Below are positions 4,567 to 56,440 of a stretch of DNA of 64,000 nt, piece by piece (positions within the stretch are counted from its first letter, which is position 1; the number at the start of each line of letters is the position of its first letter). Under the pieces are notes generated by a model, which was given only the letters and a program-made list of their open reading frames with translations, was not told the origin of the DNA and did no database searches. The position numbers and the translations under genes are program-made. Source of the stretch: a virus (taxonomy: Duplodnaviria > Caudoviricetes); the IMG/VR virus record IMGVR_UViG_3300010365_001171, positions 21,118 to 85,117 of that record, one strand, 5' to 3'.

Positions 4567-4953
4567 ATGGATTTTATCAAAATAAATGGCAATGTGCCCT
4601 CATCAAAAAATAGCAGAATTTTTAATTATAAATTAAAAAAATCTTTCCATTCTAAAACTACTCAAAAATTTGTAAAAAGTTCTGAGAGCGAATTCATAGA
4701 ACAAAAAGAAAAGTTTTTATCCTTAATAAAAAATAAAAGTAAACCTTTTAAAATAGGGCTACATTTTATTAGGGATTCAAAAAGAAAATGGGACTTTATA
4801 AATATGTGTCAAATTATTTTTGACTTAATGGTAAAAAATAATTGGATAGATGATGATAATACCAATGAAATAGTTCCATTTCCTGTAGAAATTGACAACG
4901 AATACTATACAGTAGATAAAAATTTAGCGGGGGTTTTAATAACTATATTATGA
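4567..4953 (+). CDS. RusA-like Holliday junction resolvase / endonuclease
   Basis: GNVPSSKNSR N-terminus and RKWDFINMCQIIFDLMVKNNWIDDDN, matching the RusA-type D-x-x-N...D...DD pattern. Confidence 0.7.
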   Translation: MDFIKINGNVPSSKNSRIFNYKLKKSFHSKTTQKFVKSSESEFIEQKEKFLSLIKNKSKPFKIGLHFIRDSKRKWDFINMCQIIFDLMVKNNWIDDDNTNEIVPFPVEIDNEYYTVDKNLAGVLITIL

Positions 4954-22300: not shown

Positions 22301-23929
22301 AGAAGACAATTCTTCTGCGATGGCTAATTCTTTCCCTGTTTTTTCCTTACCTGTATAAGCATCATATTTACTATAAAGATTAGCTTTTTTTAATTGTAAT
22401 CTTTTATAATCTTTCCAATCTTCTACAGTTAAATTTAACTGGTTTTTATGCATATGATCAAAAAGTGTAATTTCTGCATTTACTTCATCTAAAGCTTCTC
22501 TTGATTCTAATGAGATATTATCAAAAACTTTATAAAATTCTTCGTTTCCAGGAAGTTCTAAATTCTCTCTCTCCCAAGATTTTAAATTCTTGAATAACTC
22601 ATTAACTGTCTTCATTTCTTCAGCGGTTTCAGCTGTTTTCCTAGCTTCAGAATAAGCTCTTTTTAATCTTTTATGCGCATTTAAAAATTCCCAATTAAAA
22701 GTTGTCATTAAAGCAAGTCTTTTTTCAACAACTTCTTCACCATTTTCATCAAAACTTAAAATATTTACCCATTGATATAAATCTTTATAAGATTCTTTTA
22801 AATTATTTTTATTTCCACCATTTAACGTAAATAATCTTTGCTGAAAAGTATCCAAAGTATCCTGTATAAGAATACCTTGTTTTCTTATGTTTCTCTGATG
22901 TGTATTTAATATTTTTTGCATAGCAGAAACAATAGGATCACCAGACATTCCAGCAGATTCTAAATAGGCACTTAAAATACCTACATCACCCCCTTTACCA
23001 AGTAAAATTTGCTTTATAAGATCCTTGGTAATTCTTTTATTATTTAAGGCCTTTAATTCTTTGGTATACTTATCTATCAACTTCTCATTTTGCTGCTCCT
23101 TAGCACGCTTTAAACGGGTGATAACCCTGCCTTTACGGGCCTCTAACTCAGGATGAGAACCTTCAAGACTATCTTTCATAGCTTCTAATCTTTTTATTTC
23201 CGAAACATCGCCTAATTTATTAGCTTCTACTAATTGTTCATTTATATCAGACAATTGAGATAAAATATTCACATTATTTCCTGAAATATCCATATTCTTA
23301 AACACATCATATAATGTATTAACAACATGATCAAAAGATTTATTATTATACTGAGCTTTAATAAAGCTAAGATTTCTTTCTAATTTAGTTAAAGCAACAT
23401 ATACATCATTAGTATCAGGTATATCATTTAAAATAAAATAGTTTTTTAATTCTCCTACTACATCTAAATATGCTACAGCAAAGTTATTAGCATCAAACAA
23501 CTGATTATAAATTTCAATTGGATTATCTTTATACTTATCCATAGTTTCTATAAAATGCTTCTTAATAGCCTCAGAAGTTACTATACCAGACTGTAAAAAA
23601 GCTACAATAGACTGCGCTTGTTTTAAAGTTTCATCTGTAGTTCCTTTATTCAAAGAGCTAAGTCTTGAAGAGGCCTCTTTAAGTTCTGGAAACTTATGTC
23701 TAAGGGCATTAAACCACTCTAAACTATAAGAGGCATTTAAAAAAATTTTTATATTTTCAAATGCTTTTACAAGACCAGAATCCTTTAATGAATCTAAAGA
23801 GTTAACTAAGTCATTTATATTTTTATTTAATTTTTTTTCTTGTAAAAAATCAAACATGGCATCTTCTGATGCAAACTCAAATAATCTACCTGACCCTTCG
23901 TCAGTAAATGTATATTTACAACTACTCAT
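19349..23929 (-). CDS. Large virion cargo/ejection protein (1526 aa), helical, with a C-terminal hydrophobic segment
   Basis: Last gene of the giant-ORF array that contains the virion RNAP. Hydrophobic helix AAAEILMILCIYIISSALTALA; LHGNYS...MFFRKF region resembles LPD38-like polyvalent protein C-termini (recalled, not searched). Confidence 0.7.
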   Translation of the reverse strand: MSSCKYTFTDEGSGRLFEFASEDAMFDFLQEKKLNKNINDLVNSLDSLKDSGLVKAFENIKIFLNASYSLEWFNALRHKFPELKEASSRLSSLNKGTTDETLKQAQSIVAFLQSGIVTSEAIKKHFIETMDKYKDNPIEIYNQLFDANNFAVAYLDVVGELKNYFILNDIPDTNDVYVALTKLERNLSFIKAQYNNKSFDHVVNTLYDVFKNMDISGNNVNILSQLSDINEQLVEANKLGDVSEIKRLEAMKDSLEGSHPELEARKGRVITRLKRAKEQQNEKLIDKYTKELKALNNKRITKDLIKQILLGKGGDVGILSAYLESAGMSGDPIVSAMQKILNTHQRNIRKQGILIQDTLDTFQQRLFTLNGGNKNNLKESYKDLYQWVNILSFDENGEEVVEKRLALMTTFNWEFLNAHKRLKRAYSEARKTAETAEEMKTVNELFKNLKSWERENLELPGNEEFYKVFDNISLESREALDEVNAEITLFDHMHKNQLNLTVEDWKDYKRLQLKKANLYSKYDAYTGKEKTGKELAIAEELSSYREKVNGLFNDNVDNLEGAAKWEKNRSVFESILSQRLSDGLINEEDYKFQLSVWHQKNSLASYTDSFIEERTRIYNRLAELSSKKAARVEQLRLDLATLRGSRQAKDDQNQIIGDLYTEAQAAKIKEIQEELETLRLDDGEVSTNEKVLFNKIIQKYGLPAYWVDRIGIDDAQLKGEMTPEDFENFKRIDLKIQNSSANGNKKEIFELIKELDKLQETVNTTYYEEVSANKKFEVEQSTVRNTGETDEEFNKKVEENFKNSSWYLDNHYNKTVWDDRSKGYKVVSKPITIWTVTRPKKQEDIINTPNYKYSKTREIKDSYKNDKSVYDETLKSYLPKESKWKNSNASTNPEVKKLLGELTEYYLNSQKTTTIQNRLGYFLGGKEQELNEALLNSGSIKEKGQKIWSYTKNRFKFAASDKDNGYGLAELSGEPFQFVPVKYNNKLTEEDQSLDVFGNITGYLYDVAQSNEIQKSLPTFKSISKILNENTPESAKQNSLVRGLTLTSQKFVKGDTNYRAQQVEALILTQIYKEYKKRGENRVFSKFVDNVNGFAAFTSLSYNIPSAVVNWVSARIQITIESMSDEFFNYKTWKIGEAAYLNYAKDFMKDFTKSGNKSFISKLVALFDPITGEYSESIEEGFKRTALREIVQNSPANYLRHLGEHEVQISTMLGMLKTRIVTYKGKTTNLLAAYEENFKVTGLMEFAEGDVSYVLNDGGTFSKTMEYTQDSEVNLINKIQSINEGLHGNYSKLNQAMVERYSVGRMAFFFRKFFVPLFAKRFSGLRANIMRDTYTEGFYITFYNSVIKELFNVVTGKERLTNPKNWWTSQTPLQKANLKRAAAEILMILCIYIISSALTALADGDGDGEPDKDANFFLLHAIYLAKRARSETEQFMPVLGANEISKTLTTPSVAYSMHYRNTSNLVKHTIGLLTGEENAYLKQGKGFFDPDAPKVLGDLLKIIGISGNTFHPHELIKGFDYAQRNL

Positions 23930-23933
23930 ATTT

Positions 23934-24344
23934 TTAACAATTATTTATTATGCTTCCGTTATCATTTAATTTACTGATATAATCTGGATTATCAAAACTT
24001 TTTTCAATATTTATTTTTTCTTTTTTTGATTCTTGGCTATTTTCTATATTTTTTAAGGTAGCTACAAGATTATCAGAAAAGGCTTCAAAATCACTAGAAT
24101 TTTCAAATTCTATTTGTTTATCATAAACATATTCTATTGCTTTTTGCAATCCTTTATCTATTGTAATGATACTTGAAACACCATTAACAGTTTCAACCTT
24201 GACTACATTAATATTATTCCAAGTACTGTTTAAATCTTTCATTACATTACGAGCAGCTACCGGGGAATTTCCCCAGTAGTCCTCAGTAATAAGTTTATTT
24301 ATAACACCCTTAATAGTTGTTTCTATATTTAATTTACAAGCCAT
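23934..24344 (-). CDS. Small cargo-array protein (136 aa) with Cys at both termini
   Basis: MACKLNIET...GSIINNC; tightly packed between neighbours. Confidence 0.7.
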   Translation of the reverse strand: MACKLNIETTIKGVINKLITEDYWGNSPVAARNVMKDLNSTWNNINVVKVETVNGVSSIITIDKGLQKAIEYVYDKQIEFENSSDFEAFSDNLVATLKNIENSQESKKEKINIEKSFDNPDYISKLNDNGSIINNC

Positions 24345-24345
24345 T

Positions 24346-25173
24346 TTAACAATCTTTTTGTGTAGTTACGGAAGAATTTATAATTTTTTGGAGTATTTGA
24401 GGATCTGAAATTGTAACCTTTCCAAAATTAGTTTTACCTGTTCCAATAATAGTATTATCAGGTAAAATAAAATACTTAGAATTATTATAAGTACTTTCTC
24501 TAAGGGTACCTTCTAAAAAGGATAAGTTAGCCTTAATTTTATTAAGAATAGTTTCATTTGTGACCTCTTTACCATTGGCAGTAAAATATTTACCATCTGT
24601 ACCGATATTATAAACAGCTCCTGATACTGTTATACTGGTCATATCAGCAGACTTTACTTTAGTTGTTTGAATAACAGCAGGTAATTCTTGAGAAGCATCG
24701 TTTGTTTTTTCTACTGCTAACCGTTCAAATTTAATAACTTTTACAAGACCTTCACCAGCAGCAGCTACTTCTATACGTTCTTTTTTAGCTTGAGCTGCAT
24801 GTTCTTGGTTATTTTCTAATTGAAGGTATTTCTCAAATTCGTCACTATTTTGAAATAATTCATTAATATTTACATCTGAAACTTCAGTAACTTTAATTTG
24901 TAGCATATTTGAGTTTCTAAAATTATTTTCTTTAATAATTAAAGTATCCCCTACACTTATTGGTCTATTTACCTCCAAAGTTAATTGTTTTTTCTGACCC
25001 TCTAAAATTCTATAATACTCTCCAGGAATAGTAGAAACATAAGAATTCATGTATTCAAAAGTAGAATCCAACTCTTCAACAATTTTTTCAAATTGAACTT
25101 GTGTACCAGATACACCAACAATATTCAAATAAGAACTTTTAACTTCTTTTTGTGTAAAATCATAAATTAACAT
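24346..25173 (-). CDS. Cargo-array protein (275 aa) with an ASCH-like domain and a C-terminal Cys
   Basis: ILEGQKKQLT..VGD..IKVTEV..VIKFE ASCH-like pattern; ends TTQKDC. Confidence 0.65.
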   Translation of the reverse strand: MLIYDFTQKEVKSSYLNIVGVSGTQVQFEKIVEELDSTFEYMNSYVSTIPGEYYRILEGQKKQLTLEVNRPISVGDTLIIKENNFRNSNMLQIKVTEVSDVNINELFQNSDEFEKYLQLENNQEHAAQAKKERIEVAAAGEGLVKVIKFERLAVEKTNDASQELPAVIQTTKVKSADMTSITVSGAVYNIGTDGKYFTANGKEVTNETILNKIKANLSFLEGTLRESTYNNSKYFILPDNTIIGTGKTNFGKVTISDPQILQKIINSSVTTQKDC

Positions 25174-28100
25174 ACTCTTTTTTTGCCATAACAGTTAACA
25201 TATCATGGTTATTTAAATTTTTACCTAAATCTACAAGAGCTGTAATTCTAAATTTATTAAAAGAATGCCCAAAGAAAACAACATCACCAACTCTATAACT
25301 TTTGTCCTCAATTTTTAAAGTGTCAATTGTTTTATCCCCTTCTTTTACTTGTGTAATAGTTACAGGAAGTGTTAAAGCAGTTTTTTTACCTTCTATAAAT
25401 AATTGTTCATTACTTAAAACCCTCGTTTTTACATTATAATAACTAACAGCGCTAGGACTAACAGCTTCAACATTTTGCCAAGCAGATAATTTAGCAGCGT
25501 TTTTAATATTAGTAAAACCATAAAAAGAAAATGTTCCAGTTGCGGGTGTTAAAGTACCTACAGTATCCCCTCCTAGTAAATCACTAGAAAAGTTAGGGTC
25601 TATTTCTATAAACGCGTTCTTCTTAGATACAATAGTAGGGGATAGTCTAAACAGTCCATTAGAAATCCTTAACTTATATTCTTTAAAATTACCAGTCCCT
25701 TTAGCAGAAATTTCTTTAAATATCCCACCATTATTTTGTCTAAATAAAGCAGGAAAATGGTCTAAAAATCCTTTAAAGAGATTTGTACCAGATTGTGTCT
25801 GAGTTATTTGGCTGATAAAGCTATCTATAAGGGGTCTTACAACATTTCTAAACTCTTCACTAGGTATAAGTTCATTAAAAGTTGTACCTGTTTTAGATAT
25901 ACCATTCTCTACCAAATTAGTATAAATTAAATCTTTAAAAAATGTTCTAACATCATCTGCAAATTTTTCATCGGGATGCGTAAATTCCAGTAAATCACTA
26001 AATTGTTTTTCATACGCATTTGCTAACCTACCTGTTATTCTATCACCTTCATACGTAATACTAACAATATTAGAGTTTTTAGATTCTTTTTTAGAAAATA
26101 AATTTATAAATCTAGTTTCTTTAGCATTTGGCATTACTTCTTCAAATCTATTTTGAAGATTATTTAATCTTGTTCCAATATTATTTTCACCTGATAACAT
26201 TTTGGCATATTTGGTAAAAATATTATTTACAAATTTACCTTCAACTATTAAACCATTTTGAACAATAAAAGATATTAATTGATTATAAAAAAGCTTTTCC
26301 ACTTTTTCAACGGACTTAGCACCATAAATACCTGCTTTAGTTAAATCTAATTTAATTTTAGCAAGTGTATCTAAAACCAAAGGATTAGAGGACAATGGAA
26401 ATAACGGTGTAAATAACTCTTTTAATAAATCAAAATTTTCAAATGCCCTTATTGGAGTTTCATTTTTAATTCTATTATAAACAACACTAGGAAAAATATT
26501 GTCTGTTTTACTATACTTAGTAACCTTTTGAGATTTATCTATCAATGACATAATATTTGAAGTCTTTCCAGTATCAAAATTTAATGTGCCGGTAACATCT
26601 CTCAACAAACCACTTTGAAATAATAACTCATCTAATTGAGCTAAATATATTAATTGTCTTTTACTAGAAGGGGAATTTTTATCAAAATTTAATGGCATAA
26701 TTAAATCATCAGCCAAAGATTTTGAAATTCTTTCATAAGAAGAATTAGCATATTTTACATAATTAGATAAAAAATCGTTCTTAATACCTTTAAATCCTTT
26801 ATTAGAATCAGAGTACTTTTCTACTAGTGAGTCTTGAACAAAGCTTTTAAAATTACCAGATAATTCCTCATTTCTAGATCTTGAAAATGCAATTTTTAAA
26901 AATTTAGATTCTTTCATATTCAACATCTTAACGTAATCACGTATAATTGGTTGATTCATAAAGTTAGCTACATCAATAGGTGAAGTTCCCATTTGTAACA
27001 TATGAAATATTACAGGGGCCATCATTTTACCTGCATTCATATAAAATATAAAGGGTTCTTTTGCTATATCCACATACGCATTTATAAATTGTGAAAATAA
27101 CTCTGATTTTTTAATATCGTCTAAAGTATAACTATGTGAATAATCAATATGTTCAACACCGTCAACAATTACTTTACGATGAGGTAAAAAATACATTACC
27201 TCACGTTTATCTACAAAATTAGATAAATAAGCACCAGAACTTTGGTACAATTGAGTAAATGTGTTTGCTAAGGCAGCTATACCTAAAGTATCTTTACCTC
27301 CTAAAAATGCATTAAACTGCTCTAATATATTTAAAGCATCTAATACTAATGTAGGAGATTTAGATAAATTAAATTCTCCTGTTCTGGCACCAACAGCAGC
27401 TTTAATCTTATCTGCTATTTGATCTTTGATAATATTAGTTGAGTTAGGAGTAACCATACCTTCAAAAGATTCTGGCATTAAAAGACTTTTAACAGCAACG
27501 TCTAACAATCTATTAGAAAAAACAGTTTTTATACCATTTTTATCAAACGTTTTAGTTAAGATAAATGGTTTACTTCCTTCTTCTATTCCACCACTTATTT
27601 TGTACTGAAAAATATTTAATTTATCCACATCAAAATCTGATCCAGCACTAACAACAATTTCTGATGGTACAATAATAGTACTTGCCATAGAAGGATCTAA
27701 GAACTCTACTACTTGCATAACTTCAATTGAATTAAGCCCCTGTGTAGGAATCCTATAACCAACCATAGTTAAGAATTTTTTATTCTTTTCTACCCACTTA
27801 CCCTCTTTAGAATTTTCATCTAATCGAGCAGCCATCAATATAGCATTAAGGTCTTTTATAGACTCTGCTAATGTTTCCCTTTTAAAATTCTTACCTTCAA
27901 ATTCTAATGCTAATAAAGCCATATGTTTATTAGGGTCAAAAGAAATTTTTACTTGCATAGCAAGAGTTTCTCCTGTATTAGGGTCTATTCTATAAAAAGC
28001 TAAATCTTTACTATAACCTTTATTTTTAAATCTTTCTTTTACATATGTTTTTTCAAAACCAGTTACAGAAGCTTGTACTAAAGCGTCACCATAAACCTTT

Positions 28101-31100
28101 TGATTTACAAGACGGTTGTTTATAATACTAAATAAAATCTTTTCAACGATTAGTTTATTTTTAGCTCCTTCTAAATCACTAACAGAAAGCTCTACTTCAT
28201 CTTTGCTACCTTTTTTAGTAATAGTTTTAAACGTATCTAATACAGAATTAGGTAAATCTCGCCTTTGAATTTCTTGTTTAATTAAATCTCTTAAATTAGA
28301 CCAATTTGTTATAGTAGATTTTTCATTGATTTGCTTAATTCCTAATTCTTTAATTAAACCATCTTTTTCATGATTTACCATGTCCTGTAAAAGGGTATTA
28401 TACTCATGATATAACTTAAATATTGGAGAAAGTTTTATTTTTTCATCCAAAGTTAGGTTAAACCAGTTATCATCTTTTACATCTACTGGTACACCCCCAT
28501 TAAACTTATCTTGAAAAAGTAGTTTTCTATACTGAGTACCAAAAGTATTTTCAGTCTTCATTTTAGGGGCTATTTTAACCTGATTTTTCATAAACTTCCA
28601 AAAAATAGTTTGGGTAGTTAATTCTTTATCATTAAAATCACCATCTTCACCATAAAAATCATTTATTTGTCCATTTTCATCAGTAAGCGTTTCTATTTTA
28701 GAGCCAGACGCAAATGTAGCATAACCAACCCTCTGTCTTAACATTCTATTATTTAATTTTTCGTAAGGTGTACCAGCTATTACAGATGGTATTAAAGGTA
28801 CAATAGCGTATTTATGTAAAGCTGGAACAAATAACCCTAAGCTATTCTTAATTCCACCAGTATATTGATCTTTTCTTACAGGAAATAGAGCTATTTCTTC
28901 ATTAGATAATGCTTCTCCTGTAATAATTTTTACAAAGGCGTTTTCTTGCTTTTCTGACCAACTCTCAGTTCTTAAAGAATCTACTCGATACCACTCTAAA
29001 GTACAAACAGCAGTAGCATCAGGTTCTTCATAACCTTCATGACCTTCTTCAAGTGCTTTACCCCTATAAAGTTCTAATACATCTAATTTATCTACGTATT
29101 CTTCAGCAGTCTCTTCAGAAAATCCCTCTTTTAATTTTTGGTTTTTTATACCAGCTCTAATAGTTTCATAAAATTGAGATACATTTCTAACATCCTTAAA
29201 TACAGCTACCTTAAACTCATTTGAAATTTGAAAATCAGCTTCATCTAATAAGTCATTTTCATACATGTAATTTCTTGACTGCAAAAGAGTATTAGGATTA
29301 TTACGCAAGAAACGTAACATCTCATCATCTGTTCTAGCCATTGTACCAGTAGCAGAAAAACCAGAAAAGCGTTTAAATGGATCTTTATAAAAAGCTAAAT
29401 CACCATATAATACTCTCATATTTTCTGCATTCAAAATAAAAGAAATAGTAGAATAAGCATGCGCTATTTCTTTTATAGTTAAAGATTTTCCGTCTCTGTA
29501 TTTAATACTTCCAAATAATCCTGAAATTCCTTCAACCATTTTACCATCATCCCCCTCATAGGCTAACAAAGATAGTCCACCATCTAAAAGTGCTTTTTCC
29601 ATAGCCACTGCTGTACCATTTTTGCCTAAAAAGTAAGTTGTTATAGAATCTTTAATTCTTTCTCCTTTAGGGCCTAATATGTACTCTTTTGCTAATAAAA
29701 CAGCGTGGTCTGGGGAAGAGGCAGAATCTATTAAACTTTGTAGATCTGCTTTCACTCCATTAGATAATAAAGCGTCGAAAATTACAAAAGTTGTTGCTTT
29801 TTTATCATAAATTTTAGAATTTAATTTAGTAGTTTTAGCAATTTTAATACGTTTAATTTCTGAAAGGAGAAGATCACGCATAAAAGTTCCTCCTGCAATA
29901 TGTGAACTATTTATATTTCTTAAACTAATCACTGACGCTTCTTCAAGTGATATAGGAGTATTTAATTTTTTACCTGAATTATCTTTACCCCAACTAGACA
30001 TTTTATAAGCATAAGCAGAAGATTTATCCCCAGTTCTAATGTTTTCTTGTACTCCTATAGAAAGTGCATTAAGAATATCCATAGAAAGTTTATCAAAAGC
30101 GGCTAGTTTAGTAGTGACTTGTCCCTTTTCATTCAAATTTTCTGAAGCTACCTTTAAAATATCTAAGCCATTATAACTAATTAAACTATATGTAACATTT
30201 TTACCGTTCTCTTTATTTCTTTCCCAAATACCTTCTGTATTTTTAGTAAATAATCTATTAATAACTAAACTACCTAATAACATTGGATTGGCATCCGGAT
30301 TTAAATGGTTATACTCAGGTAATGCAAAGATTTCATTTAAAGTTTCATACTCTGGATTATTTAAAGTATTAGACAATAGAGTCATATAGTTATTTAACTG
30401 GTGCTCATACTCTGGCTTATCTGCTGCATTATAAATAGACGGCTCAAAAAATGTAGAAGAGTATTTTAATTCAATTTCCCCTAATCTTTTTAAATCTTTT
30501 TTTCTACCAATAATAGCCTGTCCTTTTAAATCTTTAAATGATGAGTACTCAAGCATATCTCCTATTACATTATTAATAGGATTATTATTGCTTATCATAG
30601 TAGTTATCCATCTATGTATATCATGTATAATGTCAAAGTTACCCTCTGACTGATAATTTTTTAATATTAAATCAAATTCTCCACTTTTTACTGCGTCTTC
30701 ACTCAAATCTATACCTAAAGCCTTTAAAAATTCAACCCTTTTTGCCTTAATCTCATTAATTACAGGTTTAAAGGTAGGCTTTGAAAACATTTCATCTGTT
30801 ATTTCTATAGAATAAAATGGAAAATCAGCCAAAAAATCTTTAAATAAAAACTTAACCCCATTTACACCTTTAAAGGCATACGGAGAATCTTCAAAGTTAG
30901 TTTTCCAACTATCGAACAAACGCTCTTCTGATTTATTATTTGCTCTTTTTAACGAAATTGATCCTTTTTTAGAATCATATAAGGACACTTCTCTTGGAAC
31001 TAAGGTATTACTAAAAGTATGATAAAAATCACTTCTTTTAATAGTTGCCTGTAAAGTTAATTTTGAAGGGTTTTTACCTCCCAAATAATGAATAACAGTA

Positions 31101-33196
31101 AGAAGGCTAGGATTATCAGTAGATAAACTTTGTAATTTATCAATCATTACATTAATATCTGTAAGACCTGCTAAATTATTTAACATTACTTTCCACAATT
31201 GTATAGTATCGGCTTTATCCATAAAACCAAAAGAATTCAATTGGATAACATGCTTATCACCAGACGGAGTTACCTTTGGAATATTTTCAAGCAAACTTCT
31301 TAGTGCTATTGAAGCATCTGCATAAGAATCATTTTCGTTAGTATTTTCAAAACTATTACGAACTTTTTCTAATTCTTCTACTATTTCTTCGCCAGCATCA
31401 TTTACATTATCTTCATCCTCTTCGCTCTTTTCTATATTTTTTATGTTACGCTCTTCTAAATATTCAGACATGAGTACTTGATAGTTAGAGACTTCTCCAT
31501 TATCAGTCTGTACTTTATTGTTTAATATACTATTATACACCTTGTGTGCAAGACCCCATTTATCAAGCTTCTCTCCAAATATAGTATAGTAATTACTTAA
31601 ATCTTTATAAATTTTAGGAAAAACTTTACTATTAAATATTTTTACGGCCTCTTTGTCATTTAAATCAACATTATTTGCCATAGCATACTCAGTATACTTT
31701 ATATCAATATGGTCAAATAAACTATTTACAATTTTATCACTGTCTTGACCTAAATCATCAAATAAATAAGCGCTTCTATTTAAAGCCCCAAAAAATGAAC
31801 TTGAAGATTTAGTATAAGAATTTAAATTACCATTTTTTAAATCTGCATAAGCTTTTTCAATAGTAATATCTCCAAATAATTTATTTAAAAAAGCCTTAAT
31901 TTTTTCAAACAATGATTTGTTTTCTTTAATTAAAGAACTTTTACCCGTCTGCATAAAACCTCTAAAATCCTCTGCTATAAACTCTTCTAAAAATAAAGAT
32001 TTATCATGGTCATTTAAACTATTATAAATATCTCTATCTTTTTTATTTAATTTTCCTAAAGCTTCATTATAGAGACGATTTATTTGAGTGTCTAATAAAT
32101 ACATTTGGGAAAACTCGTGCCATGCCTCATGATATAGCGTACCAGAGGCCGCGTTAGCGTAAAGAGTAACACCTGCCCTAGTCCAAGTTCCAAATACATT
32201 ACTATTAATAGTAGCAGAAATGTTAAGTCTTGTCCCATTTAAATTAAGTCTTGAATTAAACCAATTTATTTCTTCAGTAGAAACATTTGTATTATTTTCA
32301 GCAATAGCAGTCCTATTTAATGTTAAACTTTTTAAATCCCTAGATTCTTCTAAAGTTAGTTCATTCCAAGTGTTACCAAATTCATCAGTAATAACTTTTA
32401 CATTCTCTTTACCATAAGTTTTATTAAGAATATTAGTTACAGTATTTTCATAGAAGTTATAAATAGGTTTTAAAGCACCAAATCCTTCAGTTTCTACTCT
32501 TTCAAGTTCTTGTTTAAGTTGAGTTATTTCTGTATTAACTCTTTCTTGGTCAGATTTAATTTTAGATACTGTTAAAATATTAGATTGTGTAGAATTTTCA
32601 TTAGCATATTTTTGAGCTTCTTCCTCATTAGTAAATTCTTTATCATTTTCTCCAAAAACATCAAACATATCTCTTACTAACCAAGTATTATCTAATCTAA
32701 ATTTTTGATTTTCAAGTTCTTTAATTCTACCTTCTGTCTGTTTCTTAAATTCTTCTAAAGTAGTATGTCCTTCAACTTTACTAGCAGTATTACCACTAGG
32801 AAATAACACTTTTTCATATCCTTTCTTAGCACTATCTTGTATAATAGATTTAACAAAGAATGTTACCCAGTTATTATCTTTTTGAAGTAATTTAGTAAAA
32901 GCATCTGCATTATCTAAATATGTATCTAAAAATGTTTCCCAAGTTTTAGTATATTCATTTGCATTTATCTCAGTACCGTTCTTATAATAATGCCAGACAT
33001 TTTTATCATCTTTTTTTGCAGTATATTTATTATTTTCAAATTCAAAATTATTTCTCCATTTCTGAAATAAATCAGATTGAACCTCCATCACTCTCCTAAC
33101 TTTTTGGATAGAAAGAAATTGAGGATTGATTACTTGATTTATAAATTCTTCTTTAGAATTATAAGTTGTTCCTTTATATGTGTATTTACAAGCCAT
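25160..33196 (-). CDS. Virion-packaged DNA-dependent RNA polymerase (crAss-like, phi14:2 gp66 type) with a zincin domain
   Basis: GYRIPTQGLNS and AGSDFDVDKL catalytic loop (DFDVD at 27623-27637); HEAWH zincin motif at 32117-32131; 2678-aa single chain; C-terminal ASCH-like segment. Confidence 0.9.
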   Translation of the reverse strand: MACKYTYKGTTYNSKEEFINQVINPQFLSIQKVRRVMEVQSDLFQKWRNNFEFENNKYTAKKDDKNVWHYYKNGTEINANEYTKTWETFLDTYLDNADAFTKLLQKDNNWVTFFVKSIIQDSAKKGYEKVLFPSGNTASKVEGHTTLEEFKKQTEGRIKELENQKFRLDNTWLVRDMFDVFGENDKEFTNEEEAQKYANENSTQSNILTVSKIKSDQERVNTEITQLKQELERVETEGFGALKPIYNFYENTVTNILNKTYGKENVKVITDEFGNTWNELTLEESRDLKSLTLNRTAIAENNTNVSTEEINWFNSRLNLNGTRLNISATINSNVFGTWTRAGVTLYANAASGTLYHEAWHEFSQMYLLDTQINRLYNEALGKLNKKDRDIYNSLNDHDKSLFLEEFIAEDFRGFMQTGKSSLIKENKSLFEKIKAFLNKLFGDITIEKAYADLKNGNLNSYTKSSSSFFGALNRSAYLFDDLGQDSDKIVNSLFDHIDIKYTEYAMANNVDLNDKEAVKIFNSKVFPKIYKDLSNYYTIFGEKLDKWGLAHKVYNSILNNKVQTDNGEVSNYQVLMSEYLEERNIKNIEKSEEDEDNVNDAGEEIVEELEKVRNSFENTNENDSYADASIALRSLLENIPKVTPSGDKHVIQLNSFGFMDKADTIQLWKVMLNNLAGLTDINVMIDKLQSLSTDNPSLLTVIHYLGGKNPSKLTLQATIKRSDFYHTFSNTLVPREVSLYDSKKGSISLKRANNKSEERLFDSWKTNFEDSPYAFKGVNGVKFLFKDFLADFPFYSIEITDEMFSKPTFKPVINEIKAKRVEFLKALGIDLSEDAVKSGEFDLILKNYQSEGNFDIIHDIHRWITTMISNNNPINNVIGDMLEYSSFKDLKGQAIIGRKKDLKRLGEIELKYSSTFFEPSIYNAADKPEYEHQLNNYMTLLSNTLNNPEYETLNEIFALPEYNHLNPDANPMLLGSLVINRLFTKNTEGIWERNKENGKNVTYSLISYNGLDILKVASENLNEKGQVTTKLAAFDKLSMDILNALSIGVQENIRTGDKSSAYAYKMSSWGKDNSGKKLNTPISLEEASVISLRNINSSHIAGGTFMRDLLLSEIKRIKIAKTTKLNSKIYDKKATTFVIFDALLSNGVKADLQSLIDSASSPDHAVLLAKEYILGPKGERIKDSITTYFLGKNGTAVAMEKALLDGGLSLLAYEGDDGKMVEGISGLFGSIKYRDGKSLTIKEIAHAYSTISFILNAENMRVLYGDLAFYKDPFKRFSGFSATGTMARTDDEMLRFLRNNPNTLLQSRNYMYENDLLDEADFQISNEFKVAVFKDVRNVSQFYETIRAGIKNQKLKEGFSEETAEEYVDKLDVLELYRGKALEEGHEGYEEPDATAVCTLEWYRVDSLRTESWSEKQENAFVKIITGEALSNEEIALFPVRKDQYTGGIKNSLGLFVPALHKYAIVPLIPSVIAGTPYEKLNNRMLRQRVGYATFASGSKIETLTDENGQINDFYGEDGDFNDKELTTQTIFWKFMKNQVKIAPKMKTENTFGTQYRKLLFQDKFNGGVPVDVKDDNWFNLTLDEKIKLSPIFKLYHEYNTLLQDMVNHEKDGLIKELGIKQINEKSTITNWSNLRDLIKQEIQRRDLPNSVLDTFKTITKKGSKDEVELSVSDLEGAKNKLIVEKILFSIINNRLVNQKVYGDALVQASVTGFEKTYVKERFKNKGYSKDLAFYRIDPNTGETLAMQVKISFDPNKHMALLALEFEGKNFKRETLAESIKDLNAILMAARLDENSKEGKWVEKNKKFLTMVGYRIPTQGLNSIEVMQVVEFLDPSMASTIIVPSEIVVSAGSDFDVDKLNIFQYKISGGIEEGSKPFILTKTFDKNGIKTVFSNRLLDVAVKSLLMPESFEGMVTPNSTNIIKDQIADKIKAAVGARTGEFNLSKSPTLVLDALNILEQFNAFLGGKDTLGIAALANTFTQLYQSSGAYLSNFVDKREVMYFLPHRKVIVDGVEHIDYSHSYTLDDIKKSELFSQFINAYVDIAKEPFIFYMNAGKMMAPVIFHMLQMGTSPIDVANFMNQPIIRDYVKMLNMKESKFLKIAFSRSRNEELSGNFKSFVQDSLVEKYSDSNKGFKGIKNDFLSNYVKYANSSYERISKSLADDLIMPLNFDKNSPSSKRQLIYLAQLDELLFQSGLLRDVTGTLNFDTGKTSNIMSLIDKSQKVTKYSKTDNIFPSVVYNRIKNETPIRAFENFDLLKELFTPLFPLSSNPLVLDTLAKIKLDLTKAGIYGAKSVEKVEKLFYNQLISFIVQNGLIVEGKFVNNIFTKYAKMLSGENNIGTRLNNLQNRFEEVMPNAKETRFINLFSKKESKNSNIVSITYEGDRITGRLANAYEKQFSDLLEFTHPDEKFADDVRTFFKDLIYTNLVENGISKTGTTFNELIPSEEFRNVVRPLIDSFISQITQTQSGTNLFKGFLDHFPALFRQNNGGIFKEISAKGTGNFKEYKLRISNGLFRLSPTIVSKKNAFIEIDPNFSSDLLGGDTVGTLTPATGTFSFYGFTNIKNAAKLSAWQNVEAVSPSAVSYYNVKTRVLSNEQLFIEGKKTALTLPVTITQVKEGDKTIDTLKIEDKSYRVGDVVFFGHSFNKFRITALVDLGKNLNNHDMLTVMAKKEYVNL

Positions 33197-33199
33197 AAT

Positions 33200-33874
33200 T
33201 TACTTCTTTTTTGTTAATGAAGGATTTTTAAAATTTAGAACAGTAGTATTTTCTAACAAATTAAAATATTCTTTCCAGGTTTGATTAGATACAAATCTCA
33301 AAATACTTCTATAATTAAAATCATATTCTTTACAAATTTGTTTAATTGTTTTAATATTACTTTCTTTATTTGCAATATCTACAAATTTTAAAATCTGTTC
33401 TGAATTTACTTTATCTCCAATTCTATTACCTTTAATTTGGTTTACTATTTTAGATACTTTTTCTTTAGTTTCTTTAGAATGAGTTTTACCTAATTTCAAT
33501 TGTCTTTGTGCTTCTTTTTGTTCAGGAGTTCTAATTTTGCCTTTTAGAGATTCAGAAAGATTTTGTTTATGTTCTGATGTAAAAATTCTGTTTAAATTTG
33601 AACCTGCTGTTGGGCAAATATTATATTTAGGTAACAATGTATCTATATAATGTTGTTCTCTAACAAGTAAATTTTCTTTTTCACATTCTTCAATTAAAGT
33701 TATTAAAAAAGAATCTTCTTTATATTTATTAAATGCTCTTTGAAGTTTAATTGAGTAATGTTTATTTTGTCTTAATAAACATAAGTGAGAACCTTTTCTA
33801 ACATTGAAATTAGAACAAGAACCTATATACAAGTTTCCATTTATAGTATTTTCTATTTTATAAATTCCTACCAT
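33200..33874 (-). CDS. Free-standing GIY-YIG homing endonuclease with NUMOD3-like repeats
   Basis: MVGIYKIENTINGNLYIGS..R..SH; FTSEHKQNLSES and HSKETKEKVS repeats. The ATG at 33874 is preferred over the GTG at 33883 in the ORF track. Confidence 0.88.
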   Translation of the reverse strand: MVGIYKIENTINGNLYIGSCSNFNVRKGSHLCLLRQNKHYSIKLQRAFNKYKEDSFLITLIEECEKENLLVREQHYIDTLLPKYNICPTAGSNLNRIFTSEHKQNLSESLKGKIRTPEQKEAQRQLKLGKTHSKETKEKVSKIVNQIKGNRIGDKVNSEQILKFVDIANKESNIKTIKQICKEYDFNYRSILRFVSNQTWKEYFNLLENTTVLNFKNPSLTKKK

Positions 33875-33875
33875 C

Positions 33876-36800
33876 TTATCCACAATTAACTTCTAATATA
33901 CCACTTTTTTTCATAATTTCTATCAAATTATCAATATCTTTTTCTTGATAATTTTGTTTTTCATCTGCTCTCATCCAACCAATTGTATTATCTGTTTTAA
34001 ACTGGGCGTGAGATTGTATAGAAGGAACTATCATAGGAGTTTCAATGTTAGCTTCTATATAACTTCCATTAGTACCACCTGGAACTGTTAAGTTAAAATA
34101 ATGTTGAGTATTTTCAGTAGTTTGTTCTCTTGCTTTTAAATATTCTTCTTTTGTTATTTCTTGTGGTTCTGTAAATGTATCAGGTTCCCACATTTGAAAG
34201 TTTTGAGAGTCTGTAATATCAGATACTTCAAAAATTTGAAGTCCATTTGAACTATATCCTCTTCTATAATATTTATTATTTAATACAAAACCATCAGTAG
34301 TATTATCTTTATCTAGTTGTTTTTTAGCGGTATTAATCTCAACACTATAACTATAATTGGAAGCTAATTCTAAAACTATTTGTTCTCTTAAATCAGATTG
34401 TTGAGATTGTAAAATATACTCTTTAAATCCTTCTATATCTTGTTTAGAACCCAATATATGAATTTGTTCGGGTTCAAATACTACAAAAACATCCCCTCTA
34501 GTATCAAAGTCAATAGTATTTCTTCTAATTGTAGTATTATTATTTTCTTTAATATTTAAAATAGCTGGTATAATTCTAGTACCTACCCTATCTGCAATTT
34601 TATATGAACCAAAATAAAAACCCTTAGCCATGTCGTCACTTCTTAGGCCCTGACCTTTACCTATAAAAGATTTATCAAAATTATCAAATTTAGGTTTTTC
34701 TCTCCCAGAATTATCGAAACCTCTTGTACCATGATAAACAATATCTTTTACTTTACTACCAGGAAATATAGTATCTAAATATTGAGAATATTGCTCTGAT
34801 GTACCTATATTAGCTAATTCAGGATTAGATTCAAATAATTCTGGTACACCTTTTGTAGGCTCTGTATTAGAAATTATTTTTTCTCTATCAGTAATATCTA
34901 AATCTAAAAGTAATTGTTTTTGAGCACTAGGTATTTGAAGTTCAGTTAAAATTTTATTTAAATCCCAACCATTCTTTTTACCTTTTTCAAATACTTGTTT
35001 AGCCTTATCAGAAGATAAAATATCTACAGCTTTTAAATTATAATCTACTTTACTTAAATTTAAAGAACTAGACTCTATAACAGAATTAGCTTGATTATTA
35101 ATTTTTCTATTTTCAACTTTGTTAAGTAAAACATTTATATCAGAATTTGTAATTTTAAGAGTTATGCCTAAAGATTTTAAAACCTCTTTTATAAAAGCCA
35201 CTATTTTATTATACATAGTAGGGTTAGTAGTAGGAGTCTCTGCTAATTTAGCTATGTACTCTTGTCCAACTTGGCTTATTTCTGCTTTACTAAGAGATTT
35301 GATTTCTTTCCCATAATATAATTGACTAATTTTCTCTATAGCAGCTCTTTGTTGGCCGGAAGATTTTGTAACTAAGTCAGAAGCAAAAGTATCTAATTTA
35401 TCACCTAAATAATTTATAACGCCTGCGTGACCTAATGTTTCATGTCTATAAGTTTCTTCAGCCTCTCCCATTGTAGTTAGGTTAGACTGTATTAAGTACA
35501 CTTTTCCGGAAGCTTTATGATATAGACCTTTAACCTCACCTTCAGCCCCCATATTTTTAATAGCTTCTTGGATATCTAAAGGAAGTTCTGTTTCATATTT
35601 GACAATAACAGCATCAGGATACCGTTCCTGAAGCTTTTTAACACTCGTACCTCTAGTATCTTTTGTTACAGATGCTGTTTTACCTTTTTTAGATAAATCA
35701 ACTGAAAATGGAGTATCCTCATCATTGTCTAAACTATCAGCTTCATTTGCTTCAGTACTAATTTCTGTAGGATTTAATTCGTTAGAACCAGTTTTTATAG
35801 AATCCTCTTTTATGTTTAAACCGTCTGTGGAAAGAAGGTTTAACTGATCCTTTAAATATTTAAATAATTTTGGTGCTTTTTGTTCAAGCATTGCTTTACC
35901 TGTACCAATACCATCAGCAGGTATTACAATTGTTTTACCACTATCTTTAGCTTGTTGAATAGCTTCATCTACTTGTTGTTTAAATTGATTAAAATCTGCA
36001 TCAGTAAAGTAAGAAGAGTTATTAAATGTAGCTATTTTATACTCTATTTGCCAAGCTTTATTTAACTTAGGTTTTACTTTAGAATTAAAATAATCAACAG
36101 ACCACCCTTCTAAAGAACTCCATTGTTCAGGGGTTTTACCACTACCTACTAATTTATGTAAAGGTTTAGTAACTTCAACTAATACTTTTTTATTATTTTG
36201 CCCTTCCCACTCTATTACATCTCCTACCCTTAAATTTTTCCAATATTCAATATGGCCATCAGATTCATATCTTGTAGTAGCAGTCCTCTCACCTTTTTCA
36301 ATAGCTTCTAAAGTAGTATTAGCTATAACATCATTTCTCTTATTATCACCATAAGAAAAAGACATCTTACCTTTAGCAGAGGGTTTAGCTATATTACCTT
36401 CATTAGTCTTCCTATTCTTTTTAGTATCAATACCAATAGCATTAGGTAAACCTCTGATAACAGCTTGTGTAGATGAAGGTACGTATCCTATAGTTCTATC
36501 TGATGTATTATCACCAAATAAAAATACCTTATCAGTTTGCTTGGCTACATCAGCTCTAGTCCAAAAGCCATTAAAAAATTCTACTTTATTTAAACTAGGG
36601 TTTTGTGGAATTTCTAATTGCTCTCCCCTTTTATCAGAAGAATTTACTACCTCTTTAGTAGTATTAATATCTACAGTGCCTGCTACTGTTGTTTTGACAT
36701 CAAACTGGCCTTTATACACTAATAAAAGATCTAAAAATCTTTCTACAGTCCAATCCCCTTCTTTTAAATCAGTTGATTCTAATTTAGGTTTTAAAAGCAT

Positions 36801-37349
36801 GTCTACCCCTGACTTAAACTTAGTTACAGTTTTTCTAAAAGAATCTTCAACACCACTAAGAATTTTACCTGTTTTAGGGTCAAGTCTTTTATTACCCGCC
36901 AATTCAATTGCATTAGCGACTTTCTGTAAATTAAAATTTGTACCAGTAAGACCTTCTAAAGACTTTTCTAAGACTTCCTTATACAAAATACCATCAAGAT
37001 TTGCTAACAGCTTATTAAAAACTGTTGGGTTCTCTTTTTCGATTAATTGTAGAAAAGGCAGAGAAAAATGTTTTAATAACGTACTATTAGATACTACTTT
37101 TCCCTTATTAATGTATACGGTACCTTCGTTGTTAATAACACTTATTTGGTTAGTTAACAAATCATTTACAATACTGTTTACTTTATATGTTTTTGATTTT
37201 TCGAATGATTTAATAAAATCTTCCGAGGAACCCTTCATATCTGTATCAGAGGATTCATTTTGTATAAATTGAGCAACTGATACATACCCATACTTAGCAA
37301 TTGCCTTTGCGGCTTTTATTAACGTCTCTGACGTTAGACATACACTCAT
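33876..37349 (-). CDS. Polyvalent cargo protein (1157 aa): macro-like domain with ASCH insert, zincin metallopeptidase, ART-like domain
   Basis: VFLFGDN..GIGTG macro-like halves flank an ASCH-type GERTATTR..VGD segment; HETLGH at 35427-35444; IVYHGT..GFYFG..VVFEPEQIHILG; ends EVNCG. Confidence 0.75.
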   Translation of the reverse strand: MSVCLTSETLIKAAKAIAKYGYVSVAQFIQNESSDTDMKGSSEDFIKSFEKSKTYKVNSIVNDLLTNQISVINNEGTVYINKGKVVSNSTLLKHFSLPFLQLIEKENPTVFNKLLANLDGILYKEVLEKSLEGLTGTNFNLQKVANAIELAGNKRLDPKTGKILSGVEDSFRKTVTKFKSGVDMLLKPKLESTDLKEGDWTVERFLDLLLVYKGQFDVKTTVAGTVDINTTKEVVNSSDKRGEQLEIPQNPSLNKVEFFNGFWTRADVAKQTDKVFLFGDNTSDRTIGYVPSSTQAVIRGLPNAIGIDTKKNRKTNEGNIAKPSAKGKMSFSYGDNKRNDVIANTTLEAIEKGERTATTRYESDGHIEYWKNLRVGDVIEWEGQNNKKVLVEVTKPLHKLVGSGKTPEQWSSLEGWSVDYFNSKVKPKLNKAWQIEYKIATFNNSSYFTDADFNQFKQQVDEAIQQAKDSGKTIVIPADGIGTGKAMLEQKAPKLFKYLKDQLNLLSTDGLNIKEDSIKTGSNELNPTEISTEANEADSLDNDEDTPFSVDLSKKGKTASVTKDTRGTSVKKLQERYPDAVIVKYETELPLDIQEAIKNMGAEGEVKGLYHKASGKVYLIQSNLTTMGEAEETYRHETLGHAGVINYLGDKLDTFASDLVTKSSGQQRAAIEKISQLYYGKEIKSLSKAEISQVGQEYIAKLAETPTTNPTMYNKIVAFIKEVLKSLGITLKITNSDINVLLNKVENRKINNQANSVIESSSLNLSKVDYNLKAVDILSSDKAKQVFEKGKKNGWDLNKILTELQIPSAQKQLLLDLDITDREKIISNTEPTKGVPELFESNPELANIGTSEQYSQYLDTIFPGSKVKDIVYHGTRGFDNSGREKPKFDNFDKSFIGKGQGLRSDDMAKGFYFGSYKIADRVGTRIIPAILNIKENNNTTIRRNTIDFDTRGDVFVVFEPEQIHILGSKQDIEGFKEYILQSQQSDLREQIVLELASNYSYSVEINTAKKQLDKDNTTDGFVLNNKYYRRGYSSNGLQIFEVSDITDSQNFQMWEPDTFTEPQEITKEEYLKAREQTTENTQHYFNLTVPGGTNGSYIEANIETPMIVPSIQSHAQFKTDNTIGWMRADEKQNYQEKDIDNLIEIMKKSGILEVNCG

Positions 37350-40300
37350 TATAAACAGTCTTTATAAATTAAATAATCTTCTATTGTATTTGATTTTGAT
37401 AATTTGTGTTCTCTTAATACAAAAGCTTTAAATTTCTGATACTCTTCATTACTTACAAAGTTACCGCTATTTTCTAGCATTTCCAAATCTTTTTCAATAT
37501 TTTTTTCATCAGAAAAGAATTTTACACCTTGTGAAAATTTACTTGACAAAACATTAACAAAAGCGGTGTCCGTATAATTCTGTATTACTGGACTTCCCTT
37601 TTTTAAACTAAAATAAGGAGTGGTACTTTTAAACTTATTATCTAAAGAAATATTGATAGTTCCATTGTCATAAACATACTGTTTATAATCTCCTTTTACT
37701 ACCTCTAACTTTCCATTAACGATTTTAAACATATCAGTGGTTTCTTCATCAGTAGAAGTTTTATCAAAGTTTAAATTAATATTAAAATCTTTACCACCAT
37801 ATGTATAAGTCTTATTAACAACGGATTTAAAATCTTCTATATTATCTATATATTTAATGGAATTATCTTCAGGATTATAAAACTGAACAATGAATTTTAA
37901 TTCATCATTTTTATTATCTAAATAAAAACTAAACATAGGACGTTCTAAATTTGTAGAGTCTTTTAAAGCCAGCTCAGAATTAGTGTGTGTAGGAAAAAAG
38001 TTAAAATCTGATACATTATAAACATTACCTTCTTTATCATTAAATACATATTGACCAAATTTATTTTTACCACCTTTTGTAGTAATATAAGCAGTCTTAA
38101 CGCCATCATTATATAAGTACTCTTGATCCGTATAAACTTCTAATTTAGTGCCCTCTAAAGTTTCAATGATAATTTTTTTATTAATATTAGTTTTATCTAT
38201 TTTTTCATTAAACAAGTACTTATTTAATAACTTAGATAATTCTAAACTGGCAGCGCCAGTTTGTTTATTATCCCCCATATAACTAAGTACGTATTTAGGT
38301 ATATCACCACTGAATAATGATTCAAAATAATTTAAAGCTTCACTTTCACTAAAACTTTTTGGTTGTATAAATATTCGATATTGCCCGTAATTAAAAAATG
38401 GAAGATTCTTCTTTTTTTCTTTCCCGGTATTTTTATCTTCCGCATAAAACTTAATCTGTTTAGGATTAGTTAAACCATAAGAAGTTGGTTTAGGGTCATT
38501 TGGCGTTATAACTACATGTCCTACATTAGAAAAAGATATATTATACATCATAGGCTTAGCTTTATGGCTACCCGCTAAAGAAACAATCTCTGCTGTTTGA
38601 CTATTATAAGTTTCTTCAAATTTAGCAATAGCAGCCTCTTCTGTTAAACCCTCAGCAAGATAATTATTAATCATTCTTTCTCTTCTACCATTAAATGAAC
38701 GAATATCGCCATTAACAAACCGTTCATTCATATTTTTTTGACTAGGTAGATTAGTAGTTACTATATTCATAACATCTCCATAACCAACATCCCCTGGATT
38801 TAGTAATTCACCTTCTCTGTTAAAGTACAACATATTACCATCCTTATCTGTAATATGACCTTCTAAAAACCTTTGTTTATCTTGGTACTCTTCGTTGGTA
38901 TTTACTGCATAGCCGCCAAATGACTGTCTTGCTAGTTTTCCAGCCTCATAAGCAGCTTCAAAAGTATTTCCTTGAGGTGTGCCCAAAGAAGCATTTCTAG
39001 TAGCTAAAGGCCATGAAATATCAGGCTGAGAAAATGTTATTGCATACTTATCTTTATTACCCTGTTGATCATGGGAAATAAATTCAAAGACTTTAAGATT
39101 TCTGAGCTGTATTAAATTTGGCTTTGCGGCAGCTTTTTGTTCGGGAGTGCCATAAAGATATAATCTTTCCTCATTAAAATTATTTTCTGACTTAACAAAA
39201 GTATCAGCAGATTTACCAACAGCTGTTTCAACTGTTTCTACACCTGTAAAATCTTTTGGTGTAACAAATGGGCTAATAGTATCAACTTTAACAGGTTTTT
39301 TAGTCTCTTCAAGTAAAATATCTTGTATTTTATTGTCTATTAAATCATTTAAATTTGCAAATTCTTCATTAGTAATTAATTTTTTACTGAGGTATTTATT
39401 AATATCAGTTCTAACATCATTTAAATCTTGAATAGTTAAATTAGATAAATTTATTTTATTAATTATTTTGTTGGAAGGAGTAACTTTATTAACTGAATCA
39501 ATATCTTTTCCTTCTCTAAATTGTTCTGCTGCATTTTTTATGTTATTTATTAAATTATAATAATGTGGTATAGATTCTGTATTTAGTACTTCAATTAATG
39601 TATTTGGTGTAAAGTTTAAAAAGTTATTTAAAGCTTCTATAGAAGATGTATTAAAACTAAGTAATTGTAAAAGATCTTCTGGAAACTCAACATTTAAAAC
39701 ATTCTCAATAATAGTATGAAGTTGGCTTGAATTAAGATCTTCTAAGGAGTTTTTTGTTAAGAGATTCTCAAGAACATCACTATCAATAAATTCATTTGCT
39801 GCTTTTTCTGCTGCAATGTCTTTAAGATGTTGTTCTCTCATTTCCTCTAAAAAGATTTCTTCTGCATTCTCTTTTTGCTCTCTTTGTAAAACAGCCCTTT
39901 CTTCTAACTCCCTCTGCATGGCACTAAAAGACCCATGCGTTACCATTAAATCCAAAATTTCATTATACACATCCATATCGTCTTCAGTGTCCCTAGCACC
40001 TAACTCATGCCAAACACCTCCTGCAAAATCTGAAAAAGATGTGCCACCTGTTTTAGATAAATACCTTTTAAAACCTAAAAATTCTTTAGGAAACGGCCTT
40101 CTACCTATCCTAGTTTCAACTCTAGTGAACGCCTTAACTAAACTGTCTGAATTTATTTTAAATCTCTTTGAGTCGGGGGCTCCTGCAATACTTACTAAAA
40201 CTTCATCATTAAGATTAGCGGGCTCAAATTTAAGGAGTGATTCTTTAACATATTTTCTATAATCACGTCTTTCTTTACGCTCTTCTTTATTTTTTTTAAT

Positions 40301-47700: not shown

Positions 47701-47883
47701 CTGTGATTCTTGTAATCCTACCTCTAAATTTAATGCGTTAGAGTAGGAATTGGCAACAGCGGTCACGCCACTATCATATTTAGCCTCTCTAGAAGCTAAA
47801 TCTTTAGCCATAAGTTCAAGAGGTTGTTGATATATATAAGGTGCGTAAACACTCGGATCTGTCTTATGTTGGTATGTAGCCAT
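44776..47883 (-). CDS. Virion cargo protein (1035 aa)
   Basis: N-terminus MATYQHKTDPSVYAPYIYQQPLELM of crAss-like cargo type; first gene after a terminator and promoter. Confidence 0.65.
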   Translation of the reverse strand: MATYQHKTDPSVYAPYIYQQPLELMAKDLASREAKYDSGVTAVANSYSNALNLEVGLQESQDFIDNKYKELKPEIEKMSTVDFSIEQNVTKATKLLDPIVTNPNIITDVGLNKFYKSQYATYNTYLKSTDPAIRELANSFNLEQVQNGYTGYKNGGWDGLGASAANKVAYKPYSNTGKNFMKFAKDGKLIQTIQSFDGDWLRTETNGKGSIAFIKGLYQASMSGSDREQLGIEADVLYERSRKPGESDLSMGKRAVESASAHTVNAIKGNDELLGKVTLKLNELNKKGKENFTPEDKKAFEEYSAVAKTITPMNEALKKSNEELIGLSDEDIVLKFGKQAFMNEYSDKVLDNLATSYAGATYSNTYKPNEINMQTRNFQQQDKIQAVSNNQRNYEISTKAAIDANAATTQYNREVELKKLEGQIAIEVNNSKPGTAAERAAAERAAIDSQGVPGDPDNDPLTNPQTVAEYNTAVNGRTEDYLSSVEGNINTIISGILPLNNTTTKQNLGNDLLRSWAYGSNITPFNKVLNSKSSPELKAKQVYLKEIFTELQRKGLIAANVDLATTPFNTVSKLVTNAVISESKHIRNTGKSNFGLSSNALGTIRKVQNDADIIYSDILNLRENKATTIKALTTKLASPTYNVLERDYPGSFDNANKYSANLMQAISEGKIIPQGRGAQSVIRVENGVTKFAVTVWKPGQEKIAKHLREGETVYVTLDQLPATIEKNKGIDRYVGNNSLSKEAIYEMYLGRIGNLPTFQDFKEKQKKAISSNPADLNRNIVGPGSLKYGSEKAYNSFTASQAAMNLDGKFSIELSTALQNKDIFSNVTIYPTRNGKQKQVYEIDGKTLYETVKNVSNNKNLTIGQLASQYGLTKSKTTGNYTFVTTVPAEKSEDVNMQMSLSNGRSYPVSNNAYSGKLSAQPGTGKVSIQSSIKTIKTSGETVIINQDGSVQFEDGQRYLETRESLGNPVDLYNNLQADASNVSALYDLIHSKDAKEKVKAILKANKNELEADGTYKMTKSDFLRLYPSAQIFIK

Positions 47884-47900
47884 TAACTAAATTTTATATT

Positions 47901-47932
47901 ATAATATATTCTTTTTTGACTGTATTAACAAA
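47901..47932 (-). promoter_or_regulatory. Putative promoter TTTG-N20-TATATTAT for the cargo/RNAP array
   Basis: Minus strand TTTG (47932-47929), 20 nt, TATATTAT (47908-47901), ending 17 nt before the ATG at 47883. Confidence 0.6.
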
Positions 47933-47954
47933 AAAAATTAAATGCCTTAAACAT

Positions 47955-47987
47955 AAAAAATTAGGAAGCTCTAAGAACTTCCTAATT
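47955..47987 (-). terminator. Intrinsic terminator
   Basis: AATTAGGAAG (47959-47968) / CTTCCTAATT (47978-47987) stem with a U tract on the minus strand. Confidence 0.75.
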
Positions 47988-48006
47988 ATTAATTAAAAAT
48001 GTTAAA

Positions 48007-48636: not shown

Positions 48637-48672
48637 AGCTTGTGGAATACCAAAATTTCATAACGCTTTGGA

Positions 48673-56438: not shown

Positions 56439-56440
56439 TC

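Follow-up and report, generated by a model that had tools for sequence, protein, structure and literature searches.

Paired terminal cysteines in the RNA polymerase cargo block of crAss-like phages and a candidate disulfide-stitched ejection thread

Ejected cargo of crAss-like phages and comparable systems

Phages of the Crassvirales eject a near-megadalton protein cargo that includes the RNA polymerase (RNAP) with which infection starts, and how this cargo is packed, ordered and ejected is an open question. For phi14:2 (gp67-gp66-gp65) and crAss001 (gp47-gp50-gp49), the RNAP-block proteins have been found in virions by mass spectrometry (for crAss001, PMC10172136). The crAss001 structure paper names “packing and interactions” as what determines the ejection order (PMC10172136). 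The present analysis concerns the cargo block of a crAss-like phage that lies within a window of 64,000 nucleotides (nt), the whole stretch of DNA analysed (positions 21,118 to 85,117 of IMG/VR record IMGVR_UViG_3300010365_001171). This block shares with both phages a homologous RNAP and last protein, giant neighbours, and the same pattern of cysteines at protein ends, whereby a protein that ends in a cysteine precedes one that begins with a cysteine. To these it adds a chain of five members as opposed to three, a 136-amino acid (aa) linker protein with two cysteines, an endonuclease gene at one junction, where a domain is split, and the correction of a frameshift in the RNAP gene.

No description of these terminal cysteines was found in the literature, including the crAss001 structure paper (PMC10172136) and the preprint on the phi14:2 RNAP. 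Nor does the word cysteine occur in the search listing for the polyvalent-protein paper. The terminal-cysteine rule offers a concrete candidate mechanism for the open question, one that is cheaply testable in cultured phi14:2 and crAss001, and it may explain why the giant genes tolerate repeated fission.

N4-like phages (Schitoviridae) resemble crAss-like phages in that a giant virion RNAP is ejected together with partner proteins, but N4 has no terminal cysteines: its gp50 (the virion RNAP), gp51 and gp52 hold 0 cysteines in 4294 aa (L097). Avoidance of cysteine in ejected proteins is therefore not limited to crAss-like phages, and the putative tether through terminal cysteines appears specific to them.

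A parallel in working principle, without homology, is provided by AB-type toxins such as diphtheria toxin and the clostridial neurotoxins. Here, a single disulfide keeps two chains of one polypeptide together. One of these chains passes a narrow channel in the unfolded state, and reduction in the cytosol sets it free. The toxins are one nicked gene product, whereas the crAss proteins come from separate genes, carry their cysteines at the extreme termini, stand up to five in series and would be joined by a bond that is putative. A parallel in gene structure is the nrdA gene of Aeromonas phage Aeh1, which is split by the free-standing homing endonuclease gene mobE. In both cases an endonuclease gene lies between two gene halves, although in the window this applies to one junction only. 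In the known cases, the products of genes split by homing endonucleases reassemble non-covalently, and to our knowledge matched terminal cysteines have not been reported for them. The docking domains of polyketide synthases and nonribosomal peptide synthetases are also short C- and N-terminal elements that set the order of consecutive proteins. They are non-covalent, involve no translocation and follow no cysteine rule, and thus the likeness is conceptual only.

Organization of the RNAP cargo block

The cargo block comprises nine consecutive genes on the minus strand, running from 51327 down to 19349. The members of the chain are listed below in their order.

37349..44773, minus strand: 2474-aa protein, first chain member; its sole cysteine is residue 2473 (penultimate), and its head has none
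33876..37349, minus strand: 1157-aa protein, second chain member; cysteines at 4 and 1156 only; contains DUF7831
24346..33196, minus strand: virion-type RNAP gene, 2950 aa in intact relatives; cysteines at 3, 1398 and the last residue
23934..24344, minus strand: 136-aa linker protein; cysteines at 3 and 136 only
19349..23929, minus strand: 1526-aa protein, last chain member; cysteine 4 at the head and 1390 internally, tail without cysteine

Read as 2474 -> 1157 -> RNAP 2950 -> 136 -> 1526 aa, the chain has a cysteine pair at all four junctions, and both of its outer ends (the 2474-aa head and the 1526-aa tail) are without cysteine. The preliminary description of this DNA had reported these four junctions from the open reading frames (ORFs), and every terminus was reproduced from the translations. 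Its cysteine counts were likewise correct for each protein (2474, 1157, 2678, 275, 136 and 1526 aa). It had also named two junctions at which neither side has a cysteine. The one between the 1035-aa and 2474-aa proteins (44776/44773) stands and is the sole true junction of this kind in the block; the other (25160/25173) is no protein boundary, being a frameshift inside the RNAP gene.

At this site, two nucleotides are deleted at the stop codon (25160-25162), and this breaks the RNAP into ORFs 25160-33196 (2678 aa, with cysteines 3 and 1398) and 24346-25173 (275 aa, with a cysteine at the last residue only) that overlap by 14 nt. In five independent assemblies (L088-L092; 99.987% identity over 15 kb, 0 mismatches), two extra bases are present and a single ORF of 2950 aa is maintained. 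Either the assembly is wrong at this site or the variant is defective, and since the five-assembly comparison identifies the site as a frameshift, it is not usable as a negative control.

The 2950-aa protein is identified by homology as a crAss-type two-barrel RNAP. It matches phi14:2 g066 and the crAss002 RNAP (tblastn) as well as the phi14:2 gp66 structure, PDB 6VR4 (E = 2e-16), and it retains the DxDxD catalytic motif that is invariant in the RNAP alignment. The 1526-aa protein matches crAss001 gp49 (E = 1.5e-32) and phi14:2 gp65 (E = 3e-19). For the cargo proteins as a whole, Pfam returned above threshold only DUF7831 and a tail lysozyme domain, and PHROGs nothing other than one weak match of unknown function in the 1157-aa protein. 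Pattern scans and protein searches with the 136-aa protein found no homologues past near-identical genomes.

The tails and heads of the window (junctions 37349, 33876/33196, 24346/24344 and 23934/23929) form two alternating look-alike classes of up to 10 residues. There is no detectable similarity between the 136-aa and 1157-aa proteins, so that the idea of two classes concerns motifs of at most 10 residues alone.

Conservation of the paired cysteines

A scan of IMG/VR with an alignment of the RNAP core yielded 80 loci with 26-34% RNAP identity, of which the 75 non-identical ones were counted. Junctions were taken between same-strand ORFs of at least 400 aa, and ORF starts were picked without regard to cysteine. 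The co-occurrence of terminal cysteines across crAss-like genomes, which the preliminary description had put forward as a check, proved strongly positive: among 134 junctions, both sides carry a cysteine at 109, neither side does at 19 and only 6 are discordant (Fisher p = 3e-17, uncorrected for relatedness). All six discordant junctions were explained by inspection. In one, the ORF start behind a homing endonuclease had been called wrongly, and three are due to unrelated cysteine-containing genes inserted between chain members; the remaining two are taken up below.

Away from the termini, cysteine is nearly absent. Internal cysteines number 61 in 438,130 residues in the 75 loci and 57 in 441,186 residues in 231 database homologues (approximately 0.014%), and 213 of these 231 homologues have a terminal cysteine. 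The head cysteine lies at positions 3-6, and the tail cysteine mostly has 0-4 residues after it. By chance, a cysteine would fall in such a terminal window of 6-10 residues at approximately 0.1% of termini, and one is observed at essentially all termini that face a junction. The pattern is far beyond chance.

The cultured phages follow the same rule. In phi14:2, the sole cysteine of gp67 is its last residue, gp66 has cysteines 3 and 2179 only, and gp65 has cysteine 3 only. In crAss001, gp47 has only cysteine 2339 of 2341 residues, gp50 has cysteines 5, 1334 and 2404, and gp49 has cysteine 5 only. The rule also holds in crAss002, cr8_1, cr108_1, cr118_1, cr125_1 and FpV4. Small two-cysteine linkers are found in other phages at the place that matches the 136-aa protein of the window, and several junction gaps hold 170-323-aa proteins whose only cysteines are one at either end; these are analogues of this linker.

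Gene fission, gene fusion and homing endonucleases

The cysteines come and go with the boundaries of the proteins. When the RNAP is fused (ORF start 3100-3700 aa before the catalytic motif, with the fusion to the upstream protein mapped by BLAST), it never has a junction or head cysteine. In RNAPs split from that protein, whose ORF starts 1460-2840 residues ahead of the motif, the head cysteine is present without exception, and the agreement over fused and split forms is 59 of 59. At least nine changes between the fused and split states were counted on the RNAP-core tree. Fused homologues are known for both kinds of junction, and thus the linked chains are one polypeptide in relatives.

At the 1157/RNAP junction the split can be placed within a domain. 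The tail of the 1157-aa protein (its last ~300 aa) and the head of the RNAP are the halves of one conserved domain, which 174 of 228 homologues have in uninterrupted form. In the contiguous homologues, a variable linker without cysteine occupies the split point. The split homologues (12 that start and 14 that end at this point) have short conserved motifs, an aromatic-rich head and a tail ending in cysteine, in which the cysteine is invariant. Modelling a natural fused homologue (P0075 together with 27 relatives) by AlphaFold2 did not give a usable structure, the mean predicted local distance difference test score being 52 and the predicted template modelling score 0.32.

In the window, the two halves are separated by one additional gene, which is not a member of the chain:

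33200..33874, minus strand: GIY-YIG homing-endonuclease gene, 224 aa with 5 internal cysteines; spacers of 1-3 nt separate it from the 1157-aa and RNAP genes

In three phages, namely that of the window, L098 (10089-10871) and the P0027 contig, the split of the conserved domain is the exact site of a GIY-YIG gene. Further GIY-YIG genes lie at junctions with paired cysteines at L020:12361-13050, L048:19557-20042, L063:10024-10641 and L076:11362-12087. These placements suggest that homing-endonuclease insertion may be one source of the fission of giant genes.

The position of the genes is not a prerequisite for pairing. In crAss001, gp47 is encoded on the strand opposite gp50 and gp49, and the cysteine pairing is still kept; pairing is therefore independent of gene adjacency and of the junction DNA. 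Together, the tracking of fission and fusion and this independence of adjacency support a link between tail and head at the level of protein. The head-to-tail interpretation of the preliminary description is backed to this extent, with one of its two negative controls lost to the frameshift.

A candidate disulfide-linked thread

The separate proteins of the RNAP block probably dock head-to-tail, with one inter-chain disulfide at each junction. It is proposed that the proteins would be made as separate chains and would dock first, after which a disulfide would lock the cysteine within the final 1-9 residues of one chain to the cysteine at positions 3-6 of the next. For the window, the result would be a linear thread of approximately 8,240 residues (2474 - 1157 - RNAP 2950 - 136 - 1526), in which the disulfide would stand in for the peptide bond of the fused forms of other phages. 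With the cysteines at the extreme ends, only short stubs would protrude, and the junction could fit a narrow tail channel. Other cysteines would have been purged so that no knots arise in a virion where disulfides form, and host reductants would separate the proteins on entry.

Two features of crAss001 bear on this scheme. Many inter-chain disulfides are present in the tail and capsid proteins of its virions (PMC10172136), and thus the virion is oxidizing enough, at least once purified. Its cargo must also get through constrictions in a partly unfolded state (PMC10172136), which would explain both the purge of internal cysteines and the terminal placement of those that remain.

The wider proposal, on which confidence is evenly divided, holds that Crassvirales phages could build a covalent thread of RNAP-block proteins post-translationally through terminal disulfides, eject it in the manner of a polyprotein and have it cut by host reductants, an arrangement that would permit repeated gene fragmentation with no loss of function. 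If true, giant genes can be broken up by homing endonucleases and other events with function preserved, thanks to re-stitching at the level of protein.

A number of points weigh against a disulfide thread. The cytoplasm in which the virion is assembled is reducing and many of the hosts live in the anoxic gut, so that no disulfide could form before packaging or release, and prior non-covalent docking would be needed. Drobysheva et al. suggested cleavage of the fused polyproteins, in which case no tether would be needed. The gut families are richer in internal cysteines; in cr8_1, for example, the 4422-aa protein has 15. The two remaining discordant junctions, from one phage seen at two loci, have their tail cysteine at -19. 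Finally, only 3-5 phylogenetically independent contrasts are available at the junction between the RNAP and the upstream protein; all are concordant, with a sign test p of 0.25.

Alternative explanations

The same topology could be held by different chemistry, with the tail and head cysteines bridging a metal ion or forming another thiol-based link. This accounts for the pairing rule equally well and, in the case of a metal bridge, requires no oxidizing environment, which suits gut phages. It is nevertheless unlikely, as there is one cysteine per side, no motif of the CxxC kind and no conserved second ligand (histidine, cysteine or aspartate), and the neighbouring residues differ greatly. A zinc hook of the Rad50 type was rejected on the single cysteine per terminus and the lack of both CxxC and a second conserved ligand.

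A second possibility, considered decidedly unlikely, is that the termini form small docking modules that associate non-covalently, with the cysteine playing a structural role and no bond being made. In its favour are the short conserved motifs that flank some junctions (12-14 homologues) and the nature of the 1157-aa tail and RNAP head as halves of one domain. However, no residue other than the cysteine is invariant among junction sequences that differ greatly, and a structural role would tolerate serine, alanine or valine in proteins that avoid cysteine approximately 100-fold.

The terminal cysteines could also bind a third partner (the portal, an inner capsid protein or the DNA end), homodimerize, or cyclize proteins with two cysteines. 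If proteins cyclized and the first one paired with the last, head and tail cysteines would balance in number just as well. Left unexplained are the restriction of tail cysteines to places where the next protein has a head cysteine, their joint appearance at each new fission site and their loss on fusion; moreover, two-protein chains cannot cyclize. This explanation is regarded as quite improbable.

An artefact at the level of nucleotides or annotation (a junction DNA motif, translational coupling or start-codon choice) is suggested by the window itself, where the junctions are tight (0-4 nt) and AT-rich with TGT on both sides, but it is essentially refuted. The opposite strands of crAss001 gp47 and gp50 exclude a nucleotide-level or translational-coupling effect, intergenic gaps elsewhere vary between -11 nt and 1.3 kb, some of them with inserted genes, the flanking residues differ, and starts were picked blind to cysteine. 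Split inteins and trans-splicing were rejected, as neither the 1157-aa protein nor the RNAP has a Hint or intein domain by Pfam, and the mere 0-4 residues after the tail cysteine and 2-5 before the head cysteine argue against intein halves.

The rule as an annotation tool

The terminal-cysteine rule has corrected the frameshift of the window, fits an intron and flags a likely start-codon error. Two ORF breaks that lack a cysteine pair proved not to be protein breaks, namely the frameshift and one in cr108_1. In the latter, the RNAP gene is interrupted by a group I intron inside the catalytic aspartate motif (L095:21790-22108; Rfam RF00028, 80 bits), and the two exons are annotated in the record as separate hypothetical proteins. 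In crAss002, the annotated start of gp33 is probably 32 codons too early (L006:16602-16700), since the methionine at codon 33 gives a head with a cysteine at position 3, as in all relatives. A terminator-like hairpin was observed in the 170-nt gap upstream of this gene.

Neighbouring genes and minor observations

Upstream of the chain lie the following genes:

44776..51327, minus strand: four cysteine-free proteins of 1035, 209, 459 and 424 aa

These are probably other ejected cargo that stands outside the cysteine-linked chain. The 424-aa protein (50053-51327) carries the phage tail lysozyme domain PF18013. Beyond it, the structural tail proteins of 51327-57924 are cysteine-rich, with 24 cysteines in a 1703-aa protein and 8 in ring protein 2 (PF25702, crAss), and genes of the window outside the cargo contain 1-4% cysteine. 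The border between the cysteine-free cargo and the cysteine-rich structural genes is sharp. Ten small cysteine-rich proteins of the window were searched for thioredoxin and thiol-oxidase domains, and none was found.

An HExxH-type motif is conserved approximately 270 residues into the RNAP protein of L063 (at about residue 2075 of that of L083), which hints at a metalloprotease module within the chain. A second GIY-YIG/NUMOD-like endonuclease gene is present on the plus strand at 4950-5681 of the window, in the gene block on the replication side.

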